DNA of 64,000 nucleotides. It comes from Eledone cirrhosa (Eukaryota). The position numbers and the translations under genes were made by a program. The DNA lies in NCBI GenBank assembly GCA_964016885.1, contig OZ024742.1, positions 104,470,001-104,534,000 of the forward strand, written 5' to 3'. Positions within the stretch are counted from its first letter, which is position 1, and the number at the start of each line of letters is the position of its first letter. A model generated the notes under the pieces. That model was given only the letters and a program-made list of their open reading frames with translations, searched no databases and was not told the DNA's origin. Below, in pieces: positions 5,217 to 61,828 of this stretch.

Positions 5217-5777
5217 GGTGTAATATGACTGAAATAATTTTATTTTGATATATATATATAAATATATATATATATATGCCGAAATTCGATCTCGCTGAAA
5301 TTATATTTGTATATATATATATATCTATATATATATATATCACAAAAAAAAAAGAGAATCAGTGTTGCAACGAATGGAATTTATTGGACATATTACAATC
5401 GTTTCTCTGGCAACCAGCTCGATGTGATGATCGAACCTGACTCTGAAATCGCAAGGTCCTCCGATACGTCTTGATTCTACGAAGCAGATTTAAAAAAAAA
5501 ATAAAAAAATCTGCTTCGTAGAATCAAGACGTATCGGAGGACCTTGCGATTTCAGAGTCAGGTTCGATCATCACATCATGGTTGCCAGAGAAACGATTGT
5601 AATATGTCCAATAAATTCCATTCGTCGCAACACTGATTCTCTTTTTTTTTTTGTGATATATATATATATATATATAGATATATATATATACAAATATAAT
5701 TTCAGCGAGATCGAATTTCGGCATATATATATTTATATATATATATCAAAATAAAATTTTTTCAGTCATATTACACC
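5217..5777. repeat. Long near-perfect palindrome (arms ~275 bp, 15-nt A-rich spacer)
   Basis: 5217-5491 is the reverse complement of 5507-5777, including the embedded (TA)n and poly-A tracts. A third partial copy lies at 5790-5875. Confidence 0.95.
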
Positions 5778-5975
5778 GATCGTGCCTCGAGCTGGTTGCC
5801 AGAGAAATGATTGTAATATATCCAATAAATTCCATTCGTCGCAACACTGATTCTCTTTTTTTTTTTTTTGCGATATCATACTCTGCTCTGTGAGAGCATC
5901 GAGTGCTCGAATGACCTACCACATATGGACGCTTTAAGCATCCAACACCAATTATATATATATTACATTCACACA

Positions 5976-6059: not shown

Positions 6060-6222
6060 GTAGATTCCAGAGTTGTGTCGGAGGGTAACCAGAGTTAAAA
6101 ATGTTATTCAATACATTGGTAGAGTATAGGCATTTTTATTATATATAGAAATGACTTCTACTGTTTCATTCGTTTTGAAATCATCATCAGGAATGTCCTG
6201 ATACGAATGAAACAGATCTAGT

Positions 6223-6226
<4 letters not shown>
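6060..6226. mobile_element. TA-embedded fold-back element with hammerhead-like core on the minus strand (6154-6197)
   Basis: Leader motif at 6103-6126. Minus strand reads GACATTC-CTGATGA-...-GAAACAG-TA-GAAGTC. Related to 12150-12250, 34710-34885 and 38555-38600. Confidence 0.6.
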
Positions 6227-6271
<45 letters not shown>

Positions 6272-6787
6272 AGTGAACAGCACAAAATATAACTACTCCA
6301 TTACCAAAAGTTTCTGGATCACAGACGATAATAATATCTCTGGATCGTTCGTCAGATAGAGATGTTATGACATCTCTATCTGACGAACGATCCAGACGTA
6401 TATATATTATTATACATAGAGCACTCTTTTTCCCTTGCTTTTCCTTTAGAATTACGTAACACAAAACATATATATATATATATATATATATACATATTTA
6501 TATCTCCTTATAATATATAACCACCAATTTCTGTCTGTCTGTCCGACAGTGGAAACACGTGCGCGCGTGGTTGCAATCTCTCTCTCTCTCTCCAGCTATC
6601 CCTCTCTTTTAGTCTGTCTGTTTCTCTCACTCTCACTCTTTCTCTTTGTAACACACTAACATTCCTCCCCTCTATCGCTGTGAAGAATGGGGAGATGGAG
6701 GAGGAGGAGGAGGAGAGAGTCACTTCGTTACTTCACCTCTGCCTTTCTTTCTCTCCCCTCTCACTCCCTCATTACGTACAGACATTA

Positions 6788-7095: not shown

Positions 7096-7625
7096 AAGAA
7101 ATATATATACATTTCTGTGTGTGTAATATATATATATATACACACACAGAAATATATATACATTTCTGTGTGTGTAATATATATATATATACACACAGAA
7201 ATATATATACATTTCTGTGTGTGTAATATCATCATCATCATCAACGTTTAACGTCCGTGTTCCACGCTTGCATGGGTTTGGACGGGGGTAGTCCCACTTG
7301 AGGCAAGAGTGATTGTCTTGCTCGCATAGGACTGTCTGGCAGGTTTTCTACAGTTGGATGCCCTTCCTAACACCAACCACATTTACAGTGTGGGTCTGGG
7401 AGGTTTTTACCGTGTTGCCTACACGGCCACATTACAGCGTGGACTGTGTGTGTTTTTGTCGTGACACCTACACGATCTCATTTGTTTCGGCCTCGATATA
7501 TATATATATACACACACAGAAATATATATATATACACACAGAAATATATATACATTTCTGTGTGTGTAATATATATATATATATACACACAGAAATATAT
7601 ATACATTTCTGTGTGTGTGTAATAT

Positions 7626-9431: not shown

Positions 9432-9636
9432 TAGGAAAAAGTATGACCCCGACGGCAGAGCTCAAGCCGTTTCGGCGTCTATTTGTAGACTGAAATCAGT
9501 CCAGAAATAGCCGTCGAAAGAGCTTGAGGTCTGCCGTCGGGGTCATACTTTTTCCTATTACCCACTCTACTACCCTAAGTATTGAGTACTCTGGTGCGTT
9601 ATGGTCCATCTGGTTCCTTACCACAACTCCTTCGTT
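9432..9636 (-). mobile_element. TA-embedded hairpin element, family X1
   Basis: ~50-bp stem (9432-9484 with 9504-9557) plus leader motif at 9565-9590. Homologues at 12260-12398 and 51556-51748. Confidence 0.75.
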
Positions 9637-11040
9637 AGATATATATATATAGATAGATATAGATATACCATAACAACCAATGAAATTTAATACTGATTTC
9701 TTACGTTGACCTAAGGCCTAATATTTGTAAAAGAGGAATTGATTAAATAGATCCTAGTATTTGCCAGGTACTAATGTCATTCATACAGATGTTCTGGGTT
9801 GTAATTGGTGCTATTGACTGAATGCAGAGAGGCGAAATTGGATATACTACTCATCCCCCGCCCTAAACTTAACAGGGATATGTTTTATACTTACAGCAAT
9901 ATATAATATTGTTATACTTTGGGAGGGTCATGTTGCCAATAAGAATCTTGCTAAACAAATTCAGAAACGAAATATATAATGTTTTATAATTAGAGCAATA
10001 TATAATGTAATATACATTTCTAATAAGCCCATCCCTCTCCCTGCGTGGAGAGACAAAGAGAGGGGGAGAAAAAGAAATGTGCATATTTAGATATGTTTGT
10101 CCAAGTGTATGTATGTATATATATATATATATATATATGGTTTTTTACATTCATTTAATTTATTAATATTTTATTTGAGTGACCCGAATCTTCCTGGTCG
10201 TTCTTTTTCGGCTGCATGGGTGATTTTAGGCATGACCTCTACGTGTTGGTATTTTAACGATAGTTATAGCTCTGATTTTTCCAAATTATTGAGCCCTCTG
10301 CCACATATATCGGATATTGTTTATCGTGATTTCGTGGGCTGATATTCCGATTCTCGATTATTCTGAGAGAGAGCGAGAGAGAGAGAGAGAGAGAGAGAGT
10401 GTTGAATTTCGTAATAATATCCAAGCTGGTAGAGCACTCAATGCGAGAGAAGAGCTGTTACATAAAATATGTTATTGTATATATACACACTTATCCTCCA
10501 ACCCTTGCTAGTAGGATGTTAAACGATGATAATGTTATGTGTGTGTTTCATATAATTTAAACAACATACAAGTTAACTGGTATCATTTATCAAGAAAAAT
10601 GTTTAGTTTCGATTTACTTACTCACACGCAGTAATAAAACCACACGTGTCTGTATATGTAGGCCACTGCATATTGTGTATGTAAACAGCTATGTCTTCAA
10701 ACATTTCTACATATATGAATGTAAATAGTTATGTCTACACATATTTCTACATGGATCTATATAAACAGCTAAGTCTACACTTATTTCTACGTGTAATAGC
10801 CTTTTAAAGTTCGTTGTTTCTTTCGTGTGTATCAGTAACAGTGAAGGTATGCCGTTATGACGGGGTGAAATGAAATGGAGAAGGTGGGACTGTTTGACTT
10901 CTAAAAAGTTGTAACAATCTACAAACTTAGACACAAGTCACGTCCAGGTCTTTCCGGGGGATATTAGTGACCGAAAACTGGAAGAGCAAAACCAGGTTGC
11001 TAATTTCGCTCTAAGGAACGTCTGCTCTACTCATAATCTA

Positions 11041-12138: not shown

Positions 12139-12259
12139 TGCATCCCGGGTTCAATCGTTGGTAACCATAGTAAGTAAGGTACTCAATACATAGTAGAGTA
12201 TATATGTTTAATATGGAAATGGCTTCTACAAGACTAGAACTGTGTCATATCAAAATGGA

Positions 12260-12398
12260 GGCGGTAAAAACCAGTTAGACCATTACTCACTAGAGATACT
12301 TGGGATAGTAGAGTGGGTAATATGAAATATTCGGGACCCCGACGGCTGAGCCCCAGCCGTTTCAACAGCTAGATCTGTTAAAGTCCCGAATTTTTCAT
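12260..12398 (+). mobile_element. TA-embedded hairpin element, family X1
   Basis: 'tacttgggatagtagagtgggtaata...gaccccgacggctgagc...gccgtttc' is homologous to the reverse complement of 9504-9610. Confidence 0.7.
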
Positions 12399-12506
12399 AT
12401 ATATATATGTATTATGTTAAGGTATCAATACATACATACATAATATGTATGATGATTGTTTCTCAATAAAAAAAAGTTCAATGGACCTTGGTTCAGAGCA
12501 TAAATA

Positions 12507-12583
12507 ATTCAAATTAAAAGGTATATGTATATATAAAGAACCATGGTTCTCTCTATATACATATCTATCTTTTAATTTGAATT
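12507..12583. repeat. Imperfect 77-bp palindrome
   Basis: aattcaaattaaaag...gaaccatggttc...cttttaatttgaatt. Confidence 0.8.
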
Positions 12584-12823
12584 ATGTGTATGTGTGTGAG
12601 TGCAAAAGGCAAATAGAAATAACAAAAGCATACGACACAGTACAATAATTATAAGTTTTACGCTTGATATAGTAGGAAAAGAGTCTTATTCGTTGGATTC
12701 CTACATTGGATTTTCACCCTGGAACTGGATTTTACCTGGACTCTACCTGAACTTTCACTTCGGTATCTTTTCGGATCACTGTATTTTCTGATTACCTTTT
12801 GCTACATATATATATAGGATTTG

Positions 12824-12855
<32 letters not shown>

Positions 12856-12858
<3 letters not shown>

Positions 12859-13123
12859 AAAGTTCTATTTAAAATTGTTGGGATACAACAAGTAAATATT
12901 TTTATAACTGATATAAAGCACTCGACAAGTATTTGGAGTAGATATACGATATTAATAAATGGTTGCATTTTAAAAGGGTACGTCAAAGCTTATTTGTAAA
13001 ACTGTTATATATTGTATTTTGTCTGATGAAGGCATACCATAATTTAATTTGGTATCCCTGAAATATGTATAATTAAATAAATATGGTTTTATAAATATAG
13101 TTTCCATTTATTAATATCGTATA
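12856..13123 (+). mobile_element. TA-embedded Penelope-like fold-back element
   Basis: Leader motif at 12917-12941. A 20-bp inverted repeat (~12943-12962 / ~13104-13123) flanks a hammerhead fold, with (TA)n on both sides. Confidence 0.7.
13015..13079 (+). ncRNA. Type I hammerhead ribozyme
   Basis: Stem I tattttgt/attaaata; core CTGATGA (13023-13029); stem II agg-c-atacca/tggtat-c-cct; GAAA (13060-13063); short stem III ATA-tg-TAT; cleavage triplet AUA. Confidence 0.75.
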
Positions 13124-13386
13124 TATATATATATATATAGCGTATCTCTCTCTCTCTCTCTCTCTCTCACGAGAGAAAGAGAGAGAGACGATATATATAT
13201 ATAACAAATCCTACAGATATTAGCTACTAGCTTATAATCTACAAGTTTCGAAGATTTAAATTCACAAATTTTGTAGAAGATAAAAGGGTTGTATTCTAAT
13301 CAGGGTTTAAGCAATTTTTCTTCTCATACATTTCTTATCACACACATATACATCCATCTATCCATGTATATATATATATAAATGTA

Positions 13387-13438
<52 letters not shown>

Positions 13439-13557: not shown

Positions 13558-13559
<2 letters not shown>

Positions 13560-13910
13560 CCAAAGTTCATTGATTACTCAACGAATACAGTTTTACAATA
13601 GTTTAGAAGCACTCAACAGTAGAGTTTTCCTGGAGTTTTTAATATTATTCAAAATGTTAACAAATGAAAAATATTCGCATAATCAAAATATATACTTTAT
13701 TATATATATTTCAAAGGTACTGATTATATCAAATCATATATTGAATCATATATATGAATAATCAAGACCGTACATATATTTTGTCTGATGAGGATGTACT
13801 GAAAAAAAAAACAGCACAGTAACTTTGAAATATATATGTAATAAAGTACGAATCTAAATGATATGTATATATTTTGATTATGCGAATATTTTTCATTTGT
13901 TAACATTTTG

Positions 13911-13918
<8 letters not shown>
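13558..13918 (+). mobile_element. TA-embedded Penelope-like fold-back element
   Basis: Leader motif at 13608-13626. A ~55-bp perfect inverted repeat (13642-13696 / 13865-13918) plus an extension flanks a hammerhead fold. Confidence 0.75.
13777..13848 (+). ncRNA. Type I hammerhead ribozyme (partly decayed stem II)
   Basis: Stem I tattttgt/ataaagta; CTGATGA 13785-13791; stem II includes tactg/cagta; GAAA 13827-13830; GUA cleavage triplet at 13838-13840. Confidence 0.65.
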
Positions 13919-15879: not shown

Positions 15880-17345
15880 GGGACTCTTCTCATCTTCGCT
15901 CACTTATTCCTAAGAGGGTCATGGGGGCAGTGTCCTCAAACACTCCTTCCAGCGGATCCTGTCAGAAGCAACCGTCTCCAACTGATCCAGCTGGATCCCC
16001 AAGCGAGACCAGCTAAGCTCATGCATGTTATCCAACCATCTTGCTCGGGATCTATCCCTGGATCTCCAGCCAGTTAGTTTTGCCTGTAAAATTTGTCTAG
16101 CGATTCTTTCCAGAGACATTCTAACCACATGCCCATAGTATCGGAGCTGTGATCTCTCAATTCGGAGAAGTAGCGGCTCTACCTGGAGTGACTCTCTGAT
16201 ATCCGAGCTATGCACTCTATCGGGTAACGTTACTCCAAAGACCCTTAGGGGGAACCCCATTTCAGCCACTTGTATTTGCGATCGTATTCTTTCGGTCATT
16301 AGCCAAGATTCATGACCATAAGTAAGACTTGGTATGAATACCGAATTCAATAAAGCGAGTTTAGCATTTACACTTACCTCCCTTCTTCTGATTACCGAAT
16401 GCTAAAACTGGCGCATTACTGCACCAGCTCCTGCAATTCTTGCACTTAATTCAGCCCCTTGCATTCCATCACTCATGAACACGGCCCATGATAATTTAAC
16501 TTTCCCATTTGCTTCAGTCGAACTCCACTCACATGTAGAGTGCACTGCGCAACATTTAAGAACTGAAGCAGAAACTGCCGAGTTAAACAGTCTACACTCC
16601 GTTTCGACACCTCAATTTGCTCAGAGATTTATCTGAATTTTGATGCTATAGTATTCGTATACCTGATCCTGGCTTCCTTATCCATTAAAGCTTCTTACTT
16701 TATATTGTAGGTCGAGCTGAATCTGCCAATTTTGTGGGCTTCGTTGGTTTTAGATAGTCTCAAGTTGTAGATAACTAGATGGTGATCAGTTGACAGCTCA
16801 GTCCCTCTCTTAACATGAACATCTAGCACTGGATTGAAGAGGTCAGAGACAATAACAAAATCAATTATTGATCTCTTCCCCTGATTCCCCTTATACCAAG
16901 TATATTTATGGATGTCTTTGTGCTGAGAAAAGGGTGTTCATAATAGAGAACCCATTACTAGAACAGAAGTCTAATAAGGCCTCTTCATTCATGTTTACAT
17001 TGGGATCGCCGTTCCTTCCAATCATTCCTTTTCATGTCAGGTGGTCAGTACCAACATGTGCATTGAAGTCTCCCATTAGGGGATATGACTCAGTCTTACA
17101 TTTAACTACATCTAACGCTGTAGTGACTTCATGAAGGAAGGACATGTATTCAGACTCTTTGTTGGGTGCTTAAAATTGCACCACTACAGATACCTTTTAA
17201 CCTAAGCTTCAAGAGGCAAATCTTTCGTCCTAATGGGATCGAGTCCATAACACATTCTGATAGCCAAGGGTTGATGAGTATGCTCACCCCAGCTGTGCAC
17301 TCATTTCTGACACTACACCCAAATAGTGGAGTTTCCATCATCCAA
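15880..17345 (-). pseudogene. RTE-clade LINE, internally deleted: APE endonuclease (16770-17345) and RT C-terminus/3' end (15880-16560)
   Basis: Motifs 'AGVSILINP', 'MGDFNAHVG', 'TDHHLV' (APE) and 'LTYGHESW...QLRYYGHVVRM...RSRDRSRARWLD' (RTE C-terminus). Multiple stops and frameshifts. Confidence 0.92.
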
Positions 17346-18410: not shown

Positions 18411-18502
18411 TTCTATATATATGTTTGGGGTGGACTTGTTACAAATTTAACCAATAAACATACACGCACTATTTGACCTTCACTTCAGCTTTATTACTAT
18501 TA

Positions 18503-18732
18503 GTTATTGGTTATTTCGTCAAACCTCTTTCGTCACACATTCTGTGACCTCTATGATTACTTGTTCTTCTTCTCTGTATCTCCTCTTCTTTCTGGTCTTA
18601 TTCCGTTTACTCCATCTTGATGCAGTAAAAACAGAATAAGACCAGAAGGAGTAGACACAGAGAAAAACAAAAACAATCATTGAGGAAGTCACAGAATGTG
18701 TGACGAAAAAGCTTTGACGAAATAACCAATAA
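18503..18732. mobile_element. Fold-back element with 45-bp inverted repeats
   Basis: 'ttattggttatttcgtcaaacctctttcgtcacacattctgtgac' versus 'gtcacagaatgtgtgacgaaaaagctttgacgaaataaccaataa' (2 mismatches). Confidence 0.8.
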
Positions 18733-18906
18733 TTAATTGTTTCTACTTTTGGCACAAGGCTAGCAATTACTCAATACATTACTGGTACTTTATTTTATCG
18801 ACCCCGTAAGGATGAAAGCCTCGACGGGATTTGAACTCAGATCGTCAAGAGACGTAACTATGCTGGAAAGCATGGCGTCCGACTCTACCTATACTGCCAA
18901 TCCACC
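18733..18906 (-). mobile_element. SINE A short form
   Basis: Reverse complement of family A with a small internal deletion. Confidence 0.88.
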
Positions 18907-26088: not shown

Positions 26089-26394
26089 AACAGAGATCTA
26101 TCCGGCTATACTTAACATACATCCGTCATGTTGTTATGATCTATAGCCATTACATCCCTTCTATTGCCATCAAATGAACACTCCCACCTCTCTAATGTGA
26201 TTTATAGGCAGAAATTCTATACTGACCAACAACCAGGCACTTCGGTGTTTACTAATTGCATGAATTTCTTCCATTGTAACGTGATGTATATACCACGTGA
26301 ATTCGAGAGAGATGGCCGAATCGGTAAAGCGTCGGATAAAATGCCCGCAGTTGTATTCGTTCCGGCTCTCTATGCTCAGAGTTCAAATCCCTCA

Positions 26395-27320
26395 GTACAT
26401 GACATTGAACAAGAAGAGATTCAAAAAGCAAGAATAGAAAATCCTTCCGTACAGAACTATGATTTAAGATTTAGAAGAGGATCAGATATGAGAGGCTATA
26501 ATTTACCAACTAGTAATGAAATAACTGTTGTTTATTGGGGGGGGGGGATAGATGGTGCAGCAACTACACAGAGATATTGTCATCTACCATAAGTTCAACC
26601 TCCCCAGAAAATACCATATATTTCATGCCACTTGGACCCCATGACCAACCTTATATTGTTTCCATATGGTGAATTTGGGTGGCATAGTGACATGCAACAC
26701 GCAGGACATGCATCCGCCATAGACTGACAATGCAGGAATATTACAGATACTGTATAGCATATAGAGGAGAATTCAGTGATACATAGGGCAGGTGGATTAT
26801 TTCAGCAGTATGTAGTGGATACCTATGTGAAAGTAGAGCGATGCGGGCTTCAATGAGGAACAATCAAACCCAATTGTGAGTGGATGGGTATAATAATTTA
26901 ATGGGTTATCTAAACAGTAGCAGATGACAACACTGAGCTTGGGGTACCAGCTATTTTGTCATCGTCTTCACTGGCAGCCCAAGAAACATGCATCAGTACT
27001 TTCAGGATGCTATGACAATTGTTGCCAAATATGGCAAGCCAGCTATAACTTATACATGCAGACCTAAATGCCCTGATATTCAAAATAATTTAAATCAAAA
27101 TGAAGCATCAGAAAACACCAGATTTAGTTGCCCGAATTTTTAAGGCTCAGCTTTCTAAAATGATGAACGATATCAAAGAAAGACACATTCTTGGTGCGCG
27201 AGTGGATTATGTTTACGTTATTGGGTTCCAAAAAAGAGGACTTCCTCATTGCCATATGTTGGTCACCTTCAGAAACGCAGACAAGCTTAGAAACAGAGAA
27301 GACATTCACAGAATCGTCCT
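26395..27320 (+). pseudogene. Helitron RepHel fragment (Rep/HUH endonuclease region), frameshifted
   Basis: Ordered motifs YNLPTSNEI, LFPYGEFGW, LFQQYVVDTYVKVE, TGSPRNM..FQDAMTIV..YGKP..TYTC, PDLVARIF and FQKRGLPHCH (HUH motif). Confidence 0.95.
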
Positions 27321-27974
27321 TTCTTTCTTAAATAGTTCCTCCTAATTTTTTTTATCTGTAGAATTTCCAAGGGTCCCGCTAGTATTCATTGATTTAACTA
27401 ATGACTTGGTCATATCGACCACATTTATATAACAATCATTTTGCAAGACTGATATTACCATAAAAAAATGAGAACTACCTCATCCTTTATTTATATATAT
27501 ATATTGCGTGTGTAATGTTAGTATGTATTTGCATATGTGTGTGTGTATATATATATATATATGTGTGTGTGTGTAGAGAGAGAGAGAGATTACTTAATAC
27601 AACGAAGTTATTCAGTCAGGTCAAAGGTCGTCCATTTAGCTGTAGTGGACAGTATGAATCTTTTATCATTGGTTTTCCTATTACATTAGAACTGAATAAT
27701 TAATGGAGTTACCAATTTTAGCTTACACTAATCAATCAGCACTTGATTAGAATGTATTTTTTTATTTTTGTTGTTTCGGTTTTTTATTCTCTCTTGTTTT
27801 TTTTTTGCCTGCAAACTGAGATTAAGTTACTATATTTTAAAAATAATCCGGAATTTGGGCGAAATTAATAATATAACAAACTTTTTCATTTAGTAAACTG
27901 GTGTTTGGAATAAAATTATGATGGTAGGATTTTAGATAAATATAAATACTTCAAAATAAATAGTTTTTTAATGA

Positions 27975-28455
27975 TCAAGGAGCGGAGTCTGGCGACTCCA
28001 CAAGGACTCCGTGGTTTGTTCTGCCGCCTGAATGCTGGTCGCTTTGCTCGCTACACCGAGCTAAAACTGGTCATTAAGCGCGTCCCAGCTCGGGTAAATA
28101 TCCCCTCAGTTCTGGAGCTGGCTGGGCTATCCAGAATTGATGGGAAAAGACCAGATAGTCTTACCCTTTATCCCAGGGTAATAGGCAGATGTCTCATCTG
28201 GGATGCCACAGTTAGCGATACATTTGTTCCCTCCCACATCATGGATGCCGCGGTAGATGTGAGGATCACTGCTTTCGTTGCCGAACGGAATAAAATCCTA
28301 AAATACCGGGAACTATCAAATAACTATTTTTTGCAGCCTGTGGAATTGGACCGCTAACTGCGAAGTTCGCGGCTCACCTTACCGAGGTGTCAGGTGATGC
28401 CTGTGAGGGTGCTTGGTTGTTTCAGTGCCATCATCCGCAGTAATACTGCGAGCGG
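27975..28455 (+). pseudogene. CRE-like non-LTR retrotransposon 3' fragment (Zn-knuckle remnant plus restriction-like endonuclease)
   Basis: 'GLFC...GRFARY..L...IKR...PSVLE..GLSR.DGKRPD.LTL.P...GRCLIWDATVSDT...AERNK..KY' is a PD..D-type RLE signature. Confidence 0.88.
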
Positions 28456-29977: not shown

Positions 29978-30020
29978 ACAATCAACATGTTTCGAGGTCA
30001 TTATCCTTCATCAGGACTGT
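29978..30020 (-). ncRNA. Minimal type I hammerhead ribozyme
   Basis: Minus strand acagtc-CTGATGA-agg-ataatga-cct-c-GAA-ACATGT-T-gattgt: 6-bp stem I, palindromic minimal stem III ACATGT, GUU triplet. Lies in a ~300-bp TA-flanked insert. Confidence 0.7.
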
Positions 30021-31950: not shown

Positions 31951-32135
31951 TATTCGTTTTAATAAGGCTAAATAGTGAGTCTTGTTAGTCTGGAATATAT
32001 CACAGGGTCATCGGGTAAACAAGCGAAACTCCAGAGTAACAAGACTCACTATTTAACTTTAATAAAATGAATATTTAAACTCTGCTTCGGTATTCATTTA
32101 GTACACTTTTCTCACAGCCGTCAACTACATACGGA
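31951..32135 (-). mobile_element. TA-embedded fold-back element, family X2
   Basis: Inverted repeats at 31952-31987 and 32037-32071; hammerhead 3' half GAAACTC-CA-GAGTA at 32025-32038; leader motif at 32078-32106. Homologous to 56370-56555. Confidence 0.65.
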
Positions 32136-34709: not shown

Positions 34710-34885
34710 GGATGGTTTTCTAAAGGAGGTCAAGGAAAAAAACCCACAGTTAAATAACGTACTCAATACGTTAGTAGAAAAGAAACATTCATTTTATATA
34801 TAAATGACTTCTACAGGACTAGAACTTTTTCATTGTATAAAATCATCAGGAATTCCTGAGTCTTGTAGAAGTGATTTCTATATAA
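34710..34885 (+). mobile_element. TA-embedded fold-back element with decayed hammerhead on the minus strand (34804-34860)
   Basis: Leader gtactcaatacgttagtagaa at 34759-34780; inverted repeats around the core; minus strand reads ttc-CTGATGA-...-GAAA.AG-ttctagtc-CTGTA-GAAGTC. Confidence 0.6.
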
Positions 34886-35189
34886 TAATTATATACATAT
34901 ATATAATGGTTTCTTATATAGACACAAGGCCAGCATTTTGGGGGGGAGGGGAAAGTCGATTAAATCGACTCCAGTGCGTGACTGGTACTTTATTTTATCG
35001 ACCCCGTAAGGATGAAAGGCAACAAAGTTAACCTCGGCGGGATTTGAACTCAAATCATAAAGAGCCGTAACTCTATGCTGCAAAACAGCATCCGACTTTA
35101 AGAAAACGTGTATATATTTATGCATAATAAACATGTCTTGATATGAATGTTTTAATCTGTGATCATGTCTCAGTAGCCACTTAAGAACG

Positions 35190-35231: not shown

Positions 35232-36837
35232 TGTTTATCCACTCAGCACTGAGATTAAAATAAGCTATTGCTTATATACTTTTTGTGAATAAAATGTGTG
35301 TACAGGTAAGCTAAACTATGTGGTATACTGTTCGAAAAATGTAAAAGTAATTAGGTCTTTATGCACCTGTATTTTTTCTGTGTGTGTGTACATACATACT
35401 CACACACATATATACAGCATATCAAATGCTTCATTATAATTAGGGAAGTAATAAATGAAATTATATATATTATATATAACAAAAAAAGGGGGAATTAGTA
35501 GTGATTAACTTTCTAATCCCTACATGTTACTTTAAATTATTCACTCACTGTCTGTCTGTCTCTCTCTCTCAAAGAGTCTCTCTATCAATTTAACCAGTAT
35601 TCATCTTGTCAATCTATTTATGTCAACTCTCACTCTCTTTCTCCACACACACTCAATTTTAAAATATATATACATGCAATTTTATGTCTATTTTTTCTTG
35701 CTGGCACAGAATGAGCAAGTTGTCACAGACTGTCAATTCTTATTAAGAGAACTGTATTGTTGGGGGAAAATTGGCACAGTCATTAAATTGTTGGATAGAA
35801 AGCTTTGTAGAAATCGTCCCAGCTCTTTGAGTTCAAATCCTGCTGAGGTCAGCTTTGCCTTTCATCTTTTCAAGGTCAATAAAAAATGTGTCAGTCTTGT
35901 ACTGGGGTTGATTCTTCCTCTGTATCTCTTTCTTACTTCCTCTCTATCACTCTTTTTCCTTTTCTGGAAGAAATCAGTTGTGTTCAAACCTGGAGGGGGT
36001 TGGCTTCTGTCAAGTTTTAAATGCCCAGGACATGCTGTATGTCACTACAGCATCCCATCGATTCCATCAGGAGTTATGGGTCCATACATAAAACTATGAA
36101 TTCTTGGGTCAACCTAAGCTTTGTGAGTAAGCTAGGTTTGTGTTGCACATCCACAATGGAAGTAAAAATATCACAATTATTTAGCTCAGTGTATAAAATC
36201 ATGGATCATAACAGGAAACTAATTTTTCTCAACCCAGCTAATTCTATGATGGGTGGATTGCAGAATAATAAAAGTAGCCAAAGTAACAACCAAAGAGTGA
36301 ATTATATTCTTTAAGCTGTATATATAAATTCTTTGAAAATTCATTAACTGTTTCTGATATTCTTTATAATGTTCCTATTCCAGCAGTATGTAATACTACA
36401 CAGTGTAGATTAAAGACCTCCTTCGGTTACAAATGACCATGGGATTTGCACCTAGAAAGTTTTCCTTCTGAGACACAAGTCCAGGGAAGGTATTTTTGTG
36501 GAAGACGAAGTTGCCCATGCGTACCAGTCTCCCCTCTTCACACCACTGATATTGTCCAAGGGAAAAAAGGCTATGACTTGACACCAATAATGTCGCAATG
36601 CATTTCTATGGCTGATCAAACTGGAGCAACATGAAATAAAGTGTTTTGCTTAAGAACTCAACGCAAAGCCCTGTCTGAGAATTGAACTCACAACCTCACG
36701 ATTGTAAGCCCGTCATTCTAACTACCAAGCCATGCGCCTTCACTAATTAAATAAAGTACTAATCAATACTAGGGTTGGTTTAATCAGTTTTGCACTTCAC
36801 TCAAATTTACAGGCCTTGTGCCTAAATTAGAAGTCAT

Positions 36838-38637: not shown

Positions 38638-38966
38638 TGGAGGCACATGGCTTAGTGGTTAGAGCATTGGGCTTGCAATCGAAAGGTTGTGAGTTCAATT
38701 CTCAGACCGGGTGATGTGTTGTTTCTTTGAGCAAGACCCTTTATTTCACATTGCTCCAGTTTACTCAGCTGTAGAAATGAGATGATCGGGGTCCATATCA
38801 TTCCACTGCAAAGTGGTCGTGGAGGTGCCACGGCAAAAAGCACCCAGCACTCACTGTAAATGAGGTTGGTGTTAGGAAGGGCATCCAGCTGTAGAAATCA
38901 AGCCAGAATCAGTCCCTGTCCCACCCTTGCAAGCAGGGAAAAGCGGACGTAAAATGATGATGATGA

Positions 38967-40444: not shown

Positions 40445-40620
40445 TCCCAGCCACAGGTCTTGCACATGTGGGCAGCTAACTCTGCTCCAATAATAGTGAG
40501 CAGGGACGTGGACCTGGGACCAAGAACACTGGATGTCTCCACAGCTACAGGCTCAACCACAAACCTATCAGAGATCAGCCGATACTTTGACAGTTTGCTC
40601 TCTTTTGCCTGGGCTGGTTA
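40445..40620 (-). pseudogene. CRE-like RLE 3' fragment
   Basis: Minus strand reads ESKLSKYRLISDRFVVEPVAVETSSVLGPRSTSLLTIIGAELA, homologous to 4161-4385. Confidence 0.8.
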
Positions 40621-42338
40621 ATTTCATGAGCAGGCTTTGCTGCCCACTAAGCAGAAGAGAGCAAATTGTCAAAGTATCGGCTGCTCTCTGGGTGCTTTTT
40701 GTCATGGAACCAGTATGACCACCTTACAGAGTTGACTATGTATATTTTATCTAGCAAGGATAAATCAACACCCTTACTCTTTGGTGCCTTTTAACAGGGT
40801 CCATTCTGTTACCAGTATTTTCTACTTAGTTTTCAACCAATCTTGGAAGCCATCCAAAAAAAAAAAAAAATCGTGGATGCTACCCTCCCTCATCTCACTA
40901 AGCCATCACAAAAACAATTCTAACTCTCACAATATAAAGATAAGTTTGAATACTCTTATATTTTACACAAGTACATATGTGAGTGAGTAGATGTGTTTGT
41001 TTTTAGATAATTCTATAAAAAGCACCCAGTCCATGGTGTAAATGTAGCTGGCGTTAGGAAGGGCATCCAGCTGTATAAACTAAGCCAGAAACAGTTCTAT
41101 ATGAGCAAGAGACAGTCATCTGACCTGACTTGACTCATAACAGGACAACTCGTCTAACCCATGCTAGTGTAGAAAAATGGGTGTTAAATGATGATGATGT
41201 ATGTATATCATCATTATTATCATCATCATCATCATTTTTATGTCCATTTTCCATGCTGGTGTGGGTTGAACCAATTATCACAGTCTAAGACTAGACAGGT
41301 CAGTAAACTACATCTTGCTCACAAGTTCCATTTTTGGAGTGGTTTCTACAGCTGGATATCCTTCCTAATACCAACCACTTTACAGAGTGTACTAGATGTA
41401 TTTAATTGTAGCACCAGTGCTTACTTCTATACTAAGTGAACTGGGTGAATTTTAACATGGCTCCAGCACTATCACTTTACAGAGTATGCTAGGTGCATTT
41501 TATCATGGCACCAGGTCTCCCCAAAGCAATATTGTTTCTGATGAAAAAAAGGGAAACAACATGTAGATGGTGTAAATTAATTTCGATATTTAATTTAATT
41601 TTTTTTTTAATTCAAATATGTTGATTTTTCACAACTGCTCACATTTATTTAGTGATTCTTTCATTCTTACTTTAGCAAATAAACTGAAGTCTATGCTTTG
41701 CTGAGAAGACCTAATAAGTTCAAAACATAACTGGAGTAGTCTCCCATATGTGCCGAATGATGAAAGAAAATATTAGTCATAGAACTAATGTTGTCTTTTC
41801 TTCACCGCATAATTATTTCTAATTAGATATTTTTATGCTCACTACATGAAGTGAATTAACACTAACTTAACTATTGTTTTTCATATAGATAATATCTCTA
41901 TATATATTTTTTGTTAAATATGACAAAACAAGTTCCATGTTTTATTTCAAAGGTGAGTGGTTAATTATAGGAAGAATAACCAGCATAAATCAATTCTTCC
42001 ACAAAATAAATAAATAAATAAATACTCCAACCTTGTAAGAATGTAAAAATGATTGTATATTAGCAATAATAATTGATTATAGTTATTGTTTAGCTTTAGG
42101 TTGGTTTTGATCGAACAGACCTACAATCGAAGCTGTGTCCATCCCGCCTATTTTTAGATTAATTTTTCAGACATAGTCTGTTTAGGATACATTATATATG
42201 TCCTTCCTTTTATTTTTATTACGGTAGTATGAGATTTGTAAGTGATTTAGCTACTATTTCCAGCATTCTGAGCAACTGCATAGTGGCTTCCTTATAAACT
42301 GATTTTGTTCTAAGCTGTTATTTAGACTCTGGTCAGCA

Positions 42339-45547: not shown

Positions 45548-45637
45548 TTTTCCTGACATTTGTACATTATTCTATGTGCTATACATGCACCTTTGATGAG
45601 TTGTAGTGCACCTGATCACTGTACACTATAATTTCAT
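45548..45637 (+). mobile_element. 3' UTR of a CR1-like LINE
   Basis: Reverse-complement match to 47232-47322. Confidence 0.8.
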
Positions 45638-45834
45638 TGGATTGGCAGTATTGGTAGAGGGTCGGACACCATGCTTTAACGCATAGAGTTACGGCCCTTG
45701 CCATTCTGAGTTCAAATCCGGCTGAGGTTAACTTTGCCTTTCATCCTTACGGGGTCGATAAAATAAAGTACCAGTAATACACTGGGTAATTGCTGGCCTT
45801 GTGCCAAAAGTAGAAACAATTATTATTATTATTA
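45638..45834 (+). mobile_element. SINE A short form, inserted in the (ATT)n tail of the CR1-like fragment
   Basis: Full family A sequence ending in (ATT)n. Confidence 0.9.
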
Positions 45835-51539: not shown

Positions 51540-51555
51540 TATGTAGTTTATATAT

Positions 51556-51745
51556 ATTATAAAAAGTTGGGACCTGATTGCTGAGCTCTTGCTGTTTCAA
51601 TAGCTAATTCCAGACAGCTGTTAAAACGGCAAGAGCTCAGCCGTCGGGTCCAGACTATTTATAATATAGCCATATTCTACTACCCCAAATATACGAATAC
51701 TCTGTTGAGCAATGGTCTAACTAACTTTAAACTGGTTCTATCCTT

Positions 51746-51748
<3 letters not shown>
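51556..51748 (-). mobile_element. TA-embedded hairpin element, family X1
   Basis: Stem 51556-51608 with 51612-51666; leader motif at 51674-51702; homologous to 9432-9636. Confidence 0.7.
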
Positions 51749-51816
<68 letters not shown>

Positions 51817-52408: not shown

Positions 52409-54069
52409 TTTCTTGACTTTGTCTAAATTCTTCTGTATATATATATGTGTTTGTATGTTTACTTTTACAGTTAATTTATATCTCATAACTTAACAGTTTG
52501 ACAAAAAAGAGATTAATAAATAAGTGTCAGACATGAAAAACATAAGAGCTTGGGTCAATATGATCAACTAAATCCCTTCAAAGCAGCACCCCAAGTAAAC
52601 ATGAAAGGCTAGAAAAATTATCAATCTGTCTATATACAGATAATACACACATGTGTACACATGCACACATACATATATTCTTTATTAACATCAAGCTTGA
52701 GTCTTGATACTCTAGAGTTTTTTTCTTTGTACTCACAGTGTCATCAGTTTGTGTGTTCATATCTGTGTGTGAGTGTGTGCGTGCGTACGTGTGTGTGTGT
52801 GTGTGTGTAACAGCTGTTCTGTCCTAGCTATATGAGCAGTTTTCAAATGAGTGAGGGCACACTTGTACCTTCTAGAGTGTTAGCAGCTGTTCAGATCTGA
52901 AGTAGTTTTTTCAGCCTTGAAGTAGAAGCCAATCTACTAAGGTGCATATTTAGTTGTGTTAAAGGTATGTAGCGGCCATGAAAAAAGATCATCAAAGATG
53001 AGGTCTTAGGGTTCAGTAGTTGTAAAGTTTGTGAAGGGTTTAGATATGTTTGTTCATGTATATGAAGGATGTGGTATTGTAGCTATTTCATTGGTATGTA
53101 TACTGAATGTGTTTTAGTTTTGATGAATAAGGTTAGGTTTATATATATATATATATGTCATCATCATCACCATCATTACCATCATTGTTTAACATCCGTT
53201 TTATCTGCTATCAAGGGTTTGACAGGTCGTCCCAAACTGTTCAGTACTCAAATAACTGAAACCAGTGAAAGAACAAAAGAATAATATATAGCTTCACAGA
53301 AATAATGGCTAAAGGAACATTTATTAAATGAAGAATGTAAGCACTGCATCTTGATTACCTTATACAGAATTTCTTTGGTTAGGAGGAGCACCCAGTTATG
53401 AAAATAGCAAACCCAAATGCAAATCTTTAGCCATTTGAACACCAACCCAATCAAAACTACCTCAGGTTCTATGAGACAAAAACCAGCCATTTAAAAGTGT
53501 TCTTATTTAAATTAAAATCTTCCAACATAATTTGATATAACAACCATATGTTAATTTACTATGAAATAATTAATAATTTAAATAAATCCTTCAATAATTC
53601 TTCATCTAGACAGAATGATTCGTTGAACAGGTGTTGACTAAGCAATACAGGTACACACACATATATATATACAAACAACCAAAATGGTGAAATTAACTGA
53701 ACTATTGACTGGGATACTGCCAGATAAAATAACAGACCACTACCACCACTACTACTACTACTAATACTACTACTACTACTGAAAGATAATATCATTTTTG
53801 TAAACTTATTACTTAAACAAAGATTTTTATGTTAACTATTTTACAAACAAAAATTATACAATGAGGGAAAATATTAAAAAAGAATAAAAATAAAATTAAG
53901 TAATGAAAAATAAAAAGAGGGAAGGGGTAAAGAAGGGCAGATCTGGCTGTATAGGAAAGTAAAAGGAAGGACTATAAATGCCATAAATGAGAAGAAAAGG
54001 AGGGAAAGAGCAAGAACTATGGGAAAGGGAGGGGGGAAGGGTAGAGGGTGACAGACTCTACACGTAGGT

Positions 54070-55769: not shown

Positions 55770-56322
55770 GCACATAGTATCTAGAATAAAGACGGGTTGG
55801 AAGAAGTTTAGGGAGCTGCTTCCTCTGTTCACAAAGAAGGGTTTTTCCCTGCGTACGAAAGGATGGTTATATGATGCCTGTGTGAGATGCGTGGTAGCGA
55901 GACATGGGCAGCAACTGCAGAGGATATGCGACGGCTGGAGAGGAATGAAGCAAGTATGCTCCGTTGGATGTGCAATGCCAATGTGCGTAAACGACCAAGC
56001 ATAGACGAGTTGAGAAAGAAACTGGGTATAAGAGGGATAAGTTGTGGTGTATGGGAGAGAAGGCTGAGATGGTATGGACATGTGATGTGCATGGAGGATG
56101 ACCACTGGGTAAAGAAGTGCCAAGAAATCCCAGTAGAAGGAAGACGCAGTAGAGGTAGACCACGAAAAACATGGGAAGAGGTGGTGAGAGCAGACCTCAG
56201 ATCGCTGAAACTCACCGAGGAGATGACAAAGGACCGTGACAAGTGGAGAGATGCTGTGCTGAATAGGAGCCGTCCAACCCTTGCAAGCAGGGAAAAGCAG
56301 ATGTAAAATGATGATGATGATG
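55770..56322 (+). pseudogene. 5'-truncated RTE-clade LINE (ORF C-terminus plus 3' tail)
   Basis: 'GSETWA...MLRWMC...RRLRWYGHV...EGRRSRGRPRKTW'; ends cccttgcaagcagggaaaagcagatgtaaaa(tga)n and sits in a TA-rich microsatellite. Confidence 0.93.
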
Positions 56323-56369: not shown

Positions 56370-56555
56370 ATTGACACATGTGAGAATGAGTACTGAATAC
56401 AGAAGTGGAGTTTAAATATTCTATGTTATGGCTAAGTGAAAAGCCTTGTTACTTTAGAGATTCACCTGTGTACTCACAGGATCATCAGACTGTCTATTGA
56501 TCCTGTGAGTACACAGGTGAAGTAATAAAACTCATCACTTAGCCATAATAAAGAA
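56370..56555 (+). mobile_element. TA-embedded fold-back element, family X2, with decayed hammerhead on the minus strand (~56445-56494)
   Basis: Leader at 56389-56411; perfect 24-bp inverted repeat 56461-56484 / 56498-56521; minus strand reads CTGATGA-t-cctgtg-agta-cacagg-t-GAAT-ctctaaa-GTA. Confidence 0.7.
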
Positions 56556-60385: not shown

Positions 60386-61828
60386 AACCCATAACTCCAG
60401 GTGGAATTGTAGGGGCACTGTAGTAACATACAGCATATCTTGTACTTTTTTTTATTGGCTTTGAATGGAAGAAAGGCAAAATTAAGGTTGGAAAGATTTG
60501 AGCGGAGAGAGCTTAAATAAATACCACAAAACATTCAACATTCTAACGACGTAGCCAATTCACTACCATTGATATGATAATTAACATCCAATATGTAAGA
60601 TGGGAAATGTGTTGTTGGAAGAGGGAAATAAAGAAGTTTCCGGAATGATTGTCAGGAAATAAAACTTTTGAGAAGTCAACAATGAAATATTTCAAAATGT
60701 TATGGGAAGTGACGTGAAATAAATAATAGGAAAATTATAATTTAAAGTTGCCTTGCATCCTTTCAAAATTAATAAAAAAAAGTACCAGTCTAGTACTGGG
60801 GTCAATTCTACCTCTATATCTCTTGTGAGAGACTTCTCTCACACTTTCTCTTTTTCCTTCTCTGAAAGAAATCAGCTGTGCTAGACCTGGAGAAAGATGG
60901 GTTCTACCAAGTTTGAAATGCTCAAGACACACCATATGTCACTACAATGCTTGTCTCATAAAAAATTACAGGTCCATACATACATAAGATGTTTTTCCAT
61001 CTATGTGTATCTGGTTTAGAATAGGTAAAACATGTCGTGGAGTGTCTTAAGAAGCAACTAAAAGTTTAGGTGTCAGGAAGGGTATCCAGTTGTAAAACAT
61101 TGCCTCGCAAAATCCCATCTAACTCAGGCCTGCATGGAAAAGTCGACATAAGAACAAATAAGAGAAAACAATAAAGTTCTGATCCACTCTATGCGTTTTG
61201 TCATGTCTACTGACTGGATATTTACCATACAATTCCCATTGTTAATAATTCTCTGCTTTTCAAATACTTATAATGTTATAGGAAAAAAATAATAAAATTG
61301 AAATCTTAGACAACATTATTGCATGTGATTATTTATATCTTGTGGTTGTTGCAGAATTACTGACATTTGAATAATTTATATATGTGTGTGTTTGTGTGTG
61401 TATATTAAAATTGCAATATTGGGCCACCCCACCCCATGGCAAAGGCAGAGCAAACCACTCACTCTTTACCTAGTTCCAAACCTTAGTTTAAAATCATTGG
61501 TACCTTATAGGGACCATATTAGATATTAAGCTAAGAACAGATATTACACTTTGATCTGAGAAGTGATTTCAATATTGGACACAGCAATTGAAGAGAATAG
61601 GTATAATCTTTTTCTGGGGAAAATTAATTGTAATAGACTAATATCATAAGTAGTAACCAAACCGAAATACAGATCTGTATGAGCAAGACGTGGTCACCCA
61701 TCCTGAATTGTCTCATAACATGAGAACCTGTCTAATCCATGCAAGCATGAAAAATGAACATTAAACGATGATGATAATATACACACACATATATAAATAT
61801 ATTGTGTTCGTATGTGTTTGTGTGTGTG

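Follow-up and report, generated by a model that had tools for sequence, protein, structure and literature searches.

A hammerhead motif with a palindromic helix III in a short insertion of probable Penelope-like origin in Eledone cirrhosa

A hammerhead ribozyme had been predicted at positions 13015 to 13079 of a 64,000-nucleotide stretch of Eledone cirrhosa DNA (contig OZ024742.1), which was analysed as a whole and is called the window here. This is animal DNA in which microsatellites and dispersed repeats abound. Two questions are raised by this locus: is the motif a real hammerhead or a chance arrangement of letters, and what kind of element could have brought it there?

Anatomy of the motif and its chance expectation

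The motif lies on the plus strand, ends in helix I (type I) and has a palindromic helix III. The 5' strand of stem I (13015-13022) is followed by the CUGAUGA box (13023-13029), the two strands of stem II (13030-13039 and 13050-13059) around a loop of 10 nt, and the GAAA box (13060-13063). Then come the six-base palindromic stretch UAUGUA (13064-13069), U16.1 at 13070 and A17 at 13071, which ends the AUA triplet and after which the cut is predicted, and the 3' strand of stem I (13072-13079). All core nucleotides, C3-A9, G12-A13-A14, A15.1-U16.1 and H17, are present, and helices I and II are able to form around them. Nine of ten positions pair in stem II, with a single C.C, and seven of eight in stem I, one of them as G.U, with U.U at the third position. 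A complete core, a 9-bp stem II with one mismatch and an imperfect 8-bp stem I had been claimed in the original prediction, and each of these parts was found at its place.

Within one molecule, helix III amounts to 2 bp with a 4-nt loop, short of a stable intramolecular helix, but the palindrome permits helix III to form in a dimer. The palindromic 15.2-16.2 region, the long helix II and the U-rich 5' and AU-rich 3' flanks are all present. Helix II is closed by A-U (or by G-C followed by an extra U); the consensus pair G10.1-C11.1 is absent, and the combination of an extra nucleotide after A9 with G10.1-C11.1, typical of minimal hammerheads of Penelope-like elements (PLEs), does not occur. Outside the motif, stem I is extended by 15 bp, the plus-strand segments 12991-13005 and 13083-13097 pairing at 15 of 15 positions, three of them G.U; the alignment of these segments was reached by 5 of 1000 shuffles, in a region picked after the fold had been seen.

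A descriptor as strict as the motif found no match in 200 block-shuffled windows. A relaxed one gave three matches in the window (13023 and 13785 on the plus strand, 30014 on the minus strand) compared to a mean of 0.11 after shuffling; both descriptors were written with the match known, and the strict threshold was set afterwards. By a second, energy-based scorer the motif ranked first in the window with 17.4, which agrees with its description as the most intact hammerhead there, and in 342 shuffles scores of at least 16 arose 0.03 times per window. A complete hammerhead core of this kind is unlikely by chance, and the motif is real. The CTGANGA box by itself shows no enrichment over the window (29 occurrences, 28.1 expected). 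The 65-nt motif is not unusually stable compared to shuffled sequences (z of -1.0); the fold of 12990-13100 has a z of -2.9.

At gathering score, the Rfam models detected no hammerhead in the whole window, only one U2-like and one tRNA-like match, and at E<=10 over 12800-13300 they gave 21 simple-repeat matches and zero hammerheads. Rfam misses this variant. The strict descriptor for minimal hammerheads, as given in PMC4209133 (helix II of 3-7 bp without mismatch, loop of 3-10, GAAA-NN-UH), likewise fails on the motif whether or not a longer helix III is permitted. Because the strict descriptor, the G10.1-C11.1 consensus and Rfam all failed, the motif is filed under the published variants with palindromic helix III and not under the strict minimal class. 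Such variants are contained in the supplementary PLE alignment of PMC4209133; two of them, from the shrimp M. japonicus and from D. willistoni, have a UA-ending triplet and an A-U-closed stem II, and the shrimp sequence also lacks the extra nucleotide. Compensatory changes at 10.1/11.1 are described for crickets (PMC2837043).

The sole match of the published descriptor in the window, obtained when a longer helix III was permitted, is the compact hammerhead-like motif at 30014 on the minus strand, which has a palindromic helix III and a stem I of 5-6 bp and adjoins (TA)n.

The insertion and its sister copy

The motif is part of an element of 264 bp, E1 (12856-13119, plus strand), located between an (AT)n run (12806-12855) and a (TA)n run (13120-13139), both presumed to be target sequence; the first 5 nt of the latter also belong to an inverted repeat. 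From left to right, E1 consists of a one-sided tail of 86 bp in inverted orientation (12856-12941, minus strand, with a relaxed form of the end motif discussed below starting at 12941), an inverted arm (12942-12962, minus strand), the hammerhead, and the arm again (13104-13124, plus strand). The arms match perfectly over 21 bp, or at 23 of 24 positions. A 20-bp inverted repeat bracketing the ribozyme had been reported: the repeat exists, but there is no tight bracketing, with 52 bp between repeat and motif upstream and 24 bp downstream. It forms no part of the ribozyme, and the best reading is that the element's end was copied there in inverted orientation. Nothing on the right side corresponds to the tail. 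When 12701-13400 was compared with the window by BLAST, the matches other than simple repeats were limited to the inverted arm and 15 bp of a second element.

This sister element, E2 (13559-13914, plus strand), also lies between (TA)n runs and shows a tail of 83 bp (13559-13641), perfect arms of 54 bp (13642-13695 and 13865-13918) and a hammerhead at 13777-13848 on the plus strand, with the core at 13785 and GAAA at 13827; eight of eight positions pair in stem I and eight of ten in stem II. Past a gap of 19 bp, the left arm resumes with the 3' half of the ribozyme in inverted form (13696-13725, minus strand). The inverted part is about 84 bp long in E2 and about 24 bp in E1. The two cores are on the same strand, 762 bp apart, with E2 downstream. 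A search of the window with E1 and E2 (nhmmer) did not find a third copy.

Comparison of the two elements revealed clear relatedness of their hammerheads, whose alignment beats all of 1000 shuffles. The scores of the left 85-bp segments, comprising the tails, of the spacers and of the right arms were equalled or beaten by 4, 13 and 47 of 1000 shuffles, respectively. In an end-to-end alignment of 374 columns, 188 of 244 aligned positions are identical, a figure inflated by the AT content. All core positions are retained in both diverged copies. When the two core boxes set the register, 11 of 20 stem II bases differ, yet nine and eight pairs are kept in E1 and E2. Pairs 3, 9 and 10 changed on both sides, as did pair 5 if the inverted half in E2 is used, and both copies share a Y.C mismatch at pair 4. 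Simulations of random substitution gave P values of 0.13, 0.07 and 0.013 for two copies plus one half copy, so that conservation of stem II pairing is suggestive and no proof; repair of hairpins in the DNA could yield the same compensatory pattern. Since stem I of E2 is fully paired, the U.U mismatch in E1 is probably due to decay.

Inverted repeats and TA flanks are also expected of a MITE or another DNA foldback element, in which case an AT-rich hairpin would resemble a hammerhead by chance; the lack of an Rfam match and the background frequency of CTGANGA fit this explanation as well. MITEs are defined by inverted repeats at both termini. In both E1 and E2 the left arm starts 83-86 bp inside the element, which is not the layout of a MITE; in E1 the repeat begins 86 bp inside the left end and is hence not terminal. 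Together with the retention of every core position in two diverged copies and the chance rate of 0 in 200 shuffles or about 0.03 per window, this leaves such an origin quite improbable. Short foldback remnants like E1 and E2 could nevertheless pass as MITEs or stay unclassified.

Because each copy has perfectly matching arms though the copies have diverged, the data suggest that E1 and E2 arose from two separate insertions of related subfamilies. Alternatively, they could belong to a short non-autonomous family moving as a fixed unit of tail, arm, hammerhead and arm, with a PLE protein acting in trans and the arms being homogenised or remade at each insertion. The end-to-end alignment, the near-equal length of the tails and the perfect arms inside copies that differ from each other fit this scenario, and a resemblance between 12967-12982 of E1 and the inverted half-hammerhead of E2 (13 of 1000 shuffles in the spacer test) hints at a shared junction. 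The putative inverted half of E1 matches its own hammerhead no better than chance, however (396 of 1000), the inverted parts are of very different length, and the window contains just two copies. A fixed unit is accordingly considered unlikely.

Probable Penelope-like origin and the shared tail motif

The layout of E1 and E2 suggests another origin. In both, an inverted 5'-truncated copy adjoins a direct copy, an extension is present at one end only, the insertion is in (TA)n, as preferred by Neptune, Hydra and Naiad, and a hammerhead is included. PLE insertions have been described in which a 5'-truncated copy is inverted, one end bears a tail of 30-40 bp, the target is biased to (TA)n and the pLTRs contain hammerheads (PMC8557442), and head-to-head inverted pLTRs with a tail are reported in PMC3846280. 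From this layout PLE membership is inferred. With a probability of roughly three in four, the motif is the pLTR hammerhead of a Penelope-like retroelement that survives in a short, heavily 5'-truncated insertion in a (TA)n microsatellite. Support for the minimal Penelope-type, dimer-dependent identity originally proposed for it comes from its anatomy, from the sister copy and the layout of the element, and from the published alignment.

A plausible course of events would start with the parent's endonuclease cutting TA-rich DNA. Two short cDNAs would be copied from the 3' region of the parent element, one starting at a distal site, hence carrying the tail, and becoming inverted in the insertion, the other starting at a proximal site through a short TA match to the target and including the whole hammerhead in direct orientation. 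The two would then be joined head to head in the (TA)n target. For an element studied in PMC11167929, it is described that both strands of AT-rich DNA are cut and extended and that the tail is defined by two start sites of the reverse transcriptase.

Compared to the insertions of EN+ PLEs (Neptune, Hydra, Penelope/Poseidon) as described in PMC8557442, PMC3846280 and PMC11167929, E1 and E2 agree in that the hammerhead is close to the 3' end, a 5'-truncated copy is inverted, only one end has a tail, the target is (TA)n and there is no clear target-site duplication. They differ in lacking an ORF and in the length of the one-sided extension, 83-86 bp and not the 30-40 bp published for PLE tails. 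Metazoan PLE hammerheads (shrimp, D. willistoni, mosquito and rotifer in PMC4209133) share with the motif type I topology, the CUGANGA and GAAA boxes, a long helix II, a palindromic helix III, flanks rich in U on the 5' side and in AU on the 3' side, and dispersed single copies. Unlike those sequences as presented there, helix II here has 10 positions and a Y.C mismatch (3-7 bp in the descriptor) and is closed by A-U or G-U in place of the consensus G-C, stem I has a long extension, and no ORF is linked. Naiad is unlikely as the clade of the parent, because canonical hammerheads are absent from it. Pfam detected a reverse transcriptase or GIY-YIG domain in none of 24 ORFs tested, a subset of those listed for the window, with one weak unrelated match; the same scan missed an evident LINE fragment and is thus insensitive, and truncated PLE copies are devoid of the ORF.

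Non-LTR retrozymes resemble E1 and E2 in that they are short, non-coding, AT-rich units with a type I hammerhead and are thought to be PLE-related, a descent from PLE repeats having been proposed (PMC7229834; 10.64898/2026.07.22.740005). A double hammerhead formed by E1 and E2 in a read-through RNA would free an RNA of about 770 nt, which would then be circularised; the cores on one strand 762 nt apart and a predicted E1/E2 helix III duplex of -3.9 kcal/mol, a value uncalibrated, are compatible with this. The layout here is that of a foldback, unlike the head-to-tail tandem arrays described in these two sources. No tandem repeat was found at E1 and E2, about 440 bp of other DNA separate them, and in E2 the inverted arm captures the hammerhead's 3' half, at a penalty of 17.5 kcal/mol. 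A retrozyme is therefore very improbable, and a tandem retrozyme was rejected, as at least two consecutive hammerhead-bearing units are called for in 10.64898/2026.07.22.740005 and no head-to-tail array with two such units is present.

CTACY and TTGAGTRC, separated by up to 12 nt, make up a short tail motif that occurs six times in the window, with 0.06 occurrences expected from 300 shuffles. A relaxed pattern, the only one that E1 fits, gave nine compared to a mean of 2.06 in shuffles; both patterns were defined post hoc. For seven of the nine relaxed sites, a microsatellite is found at a distance of 43-76 nt. At 6124 and 34777, both on the minus strand, the motif is on the same strand as CTGATGA, 66 and 72 nt downstream of it, and its orientation is therefore fixed; the E1 and E2 occurrences are on the strand opposite to the hammerhead, as an inverted copy predicts. 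At seven of ten motif-bearing sites examined, an inverted arm adjoins the tail and the partner arm ends in (TA)n, the exceptions being 12198, 32776 and 34598. Junction lengths vary by eye between related copies, fitting an inversion made anew with each insertion. A profile built from five other tails retrieved neither the E1 nor the E2 tail at E<=20, and in pairwise tests one of four other tails resembled that of E1 (8 of 1000 shuffles) and none of four that of E2. Since the profile and pairwise tests mostly failed, the link across families rests on the short motif and its position.

These observations allow a tentative and rather doubtful extension of the Penelope-like reading. Several diverged hammerhead-bearing families would share the tail motif, often as a small hairpin, about 45-75 nt from the insertion end, and it would be a conserved cis-signal at the 3' end for the Penelope reverse transcriptase and endonuclease, E1 and E2 being non-autonomous foldback mini-elements whose ribozyme is kept active by the long stem I. 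The putative signal may be likened to the initiation stem-loop of the anole element. If it served recognition or initiation, short insertions would mark both start sites of reverse transcription in many families, and they would offer a compact substrate for testing how the inverted repeats and tails of Penelope elements form, which is listed as an open question in PMC8557442.

Further sequences with this motif were noticed. At 6120-6230, 34770-34890 and 12190-12245, members of one family show a decayed hammerhead core with the tail motif 66-72 nt later, and their inverted arm varies in length from copy to copy. Another fold-back family, at 9434-9640, 12250-12400 and 51550-51750, shares the tail motif, likewise ends in (TA)n and lacks a complete hammerhead.

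Predicted cleavage and other features of the window

If the parent was a PLE, two copies in its RNA may pair their palindromic helix III strands, probably aided by the protein of the element, and be cut after AUA. For the PLE studied in PMC11167929, the hammerhead is described to cleave only with protein and to be dispensable for insertion in vitro. A tested minimal PLE motif was inactive as a monomer and of low activity as a dimer (PMC4209133); according to PMC6765202, PLEs tend to insert beside one another and tandem copies are needed for cleavage. Folding calculations, uncalibrated on a known active PLE hammerhead, put the cost of the dimer-ready fold of E1 at 5.2-7.2 kcal/mol, and its homodimer helix III, equally uncalibrated, would contribute only -2.2 kcal/mol. 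The E2 ribozyme appears trapped by its own arm, as mentioned above. The predicted self-cleavage of this copy after 13071 is doubtful, because of the U.U three pairs from the core, a mismatch absent from E2, the weak homodimer helix III and the missing tandem partner. Cleavage as a monomer would be rather surprising, while weak cleavage of an engineered dimer seems possible at somewhat less than even odds. Most probably, only a passive relic is left here.

It is hardly credible that the ribozyme was domesticated to cut a host transcript as a monomer, with the long stem I holding it together. Domestication would account for the 15-bp extension departing from perfect pairing only by G.U and for the z of -2.9 of 12990-13100. 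The monomer-competent fold, however, lies 8.1-10.1 kcal/mol above the ensemble (uncalibrated and with tertiary contacts left out), a host exon was not identified nearby, and the motif is situated inside a microsatellite-flanked repeat. Any host role is accordingly very unlikely.

Taken alone, the motif matters little. The hammerhead class has already been described and is common in animal genomes, and E1 adds one more member: PMC4209133 reports thousands of such motifs for each of many animals, and in giant squid 235 hammerhead loci have been counted (PMC6962438). Penelope is listed among cephalopod repeats (PMC8967140), and Penelope families are active in Octopus vulgaris, with ribozymes unmentioned in the main text of that report (PMC13282606). 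The titles and abstracts retrieved on hammerheads in cephalopods and on PLE tails, from a collection with few subscription papers and no Repbase, do not address the family of E1 and E2 or the tail motif.

Other fold-back sequences of the window carry hammerhead-like features. A young palindrome of 308 bp with 92.6% arm identity (5344-5651, with 5787-5866) contains head-to-head hammerhead-like motifs at 5463 (minus) and 5535 (plus), each of which combines a CGGAGGA box with a stem I of 7 bp, a palindromic helix III and about 50 nt of helix II region. The motif at 5463 has the second-best hammerhead score in the window, and a third partial copy comes after the palindrome. Pairs of hammerheads on opposite strands, 100-700 bp apart, are among the PLE hammerheads described in PMC4209133. 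In a 245-bp palindrome (18496-18740), decayed hammerheads are found in the arms; the one at 18680 (plus) shows the extra A and the closing G-C pair of a textbook hammerhead, but C3 is replaced by U. A palindrome at 6328-6410 includes two CTGACGA boxes in opposite orientation (6355 minus, 6380 plus), the minus-strand one with a 6-bp stem I that is plausible by eye. Decayed hairpins led by CTGATGA form a second fold-back family at 56419-56555, 52660-52770 and 31954-32070 (pairwise scores of 49-65), and further fold-back sequences lie at 12504-12585, 40569-40690, 41037-41384 and 7097-7229. A first census of fold-backs missed E1 through masking and gave two matches in the ribozyme scan; enrichment of hammerhead cores is not claimed.

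Remnants of other repeats are also present. The regions 15919-16401 (minus), 55875-56306, 27914-28357 and 26140-26592, which we take to be fragments resembling proteins of RTE-type LINEs, restriction-like-endonuclease LINEs and Helitrons, had no match in Pfam. A protein search with the LINE-like ORF at 15922-16401 yielded 254 relatives, the named ones in fishes, a sea spider and an insect. The U2 snRNA-like sequence at 61414-61567 (minus; 75.3 bits, Rfam) contains deletions and is probably a pseudogene. A dispersed SINE-like repeat begins with the tRNA-like sequence at 38648-38705 and has relatives at 36601, 50556, 63595 and other positions, and a second dispersed repeat of about 190 bp is present in more than 15 copies (for example 2428-2619 and 45635-45824).
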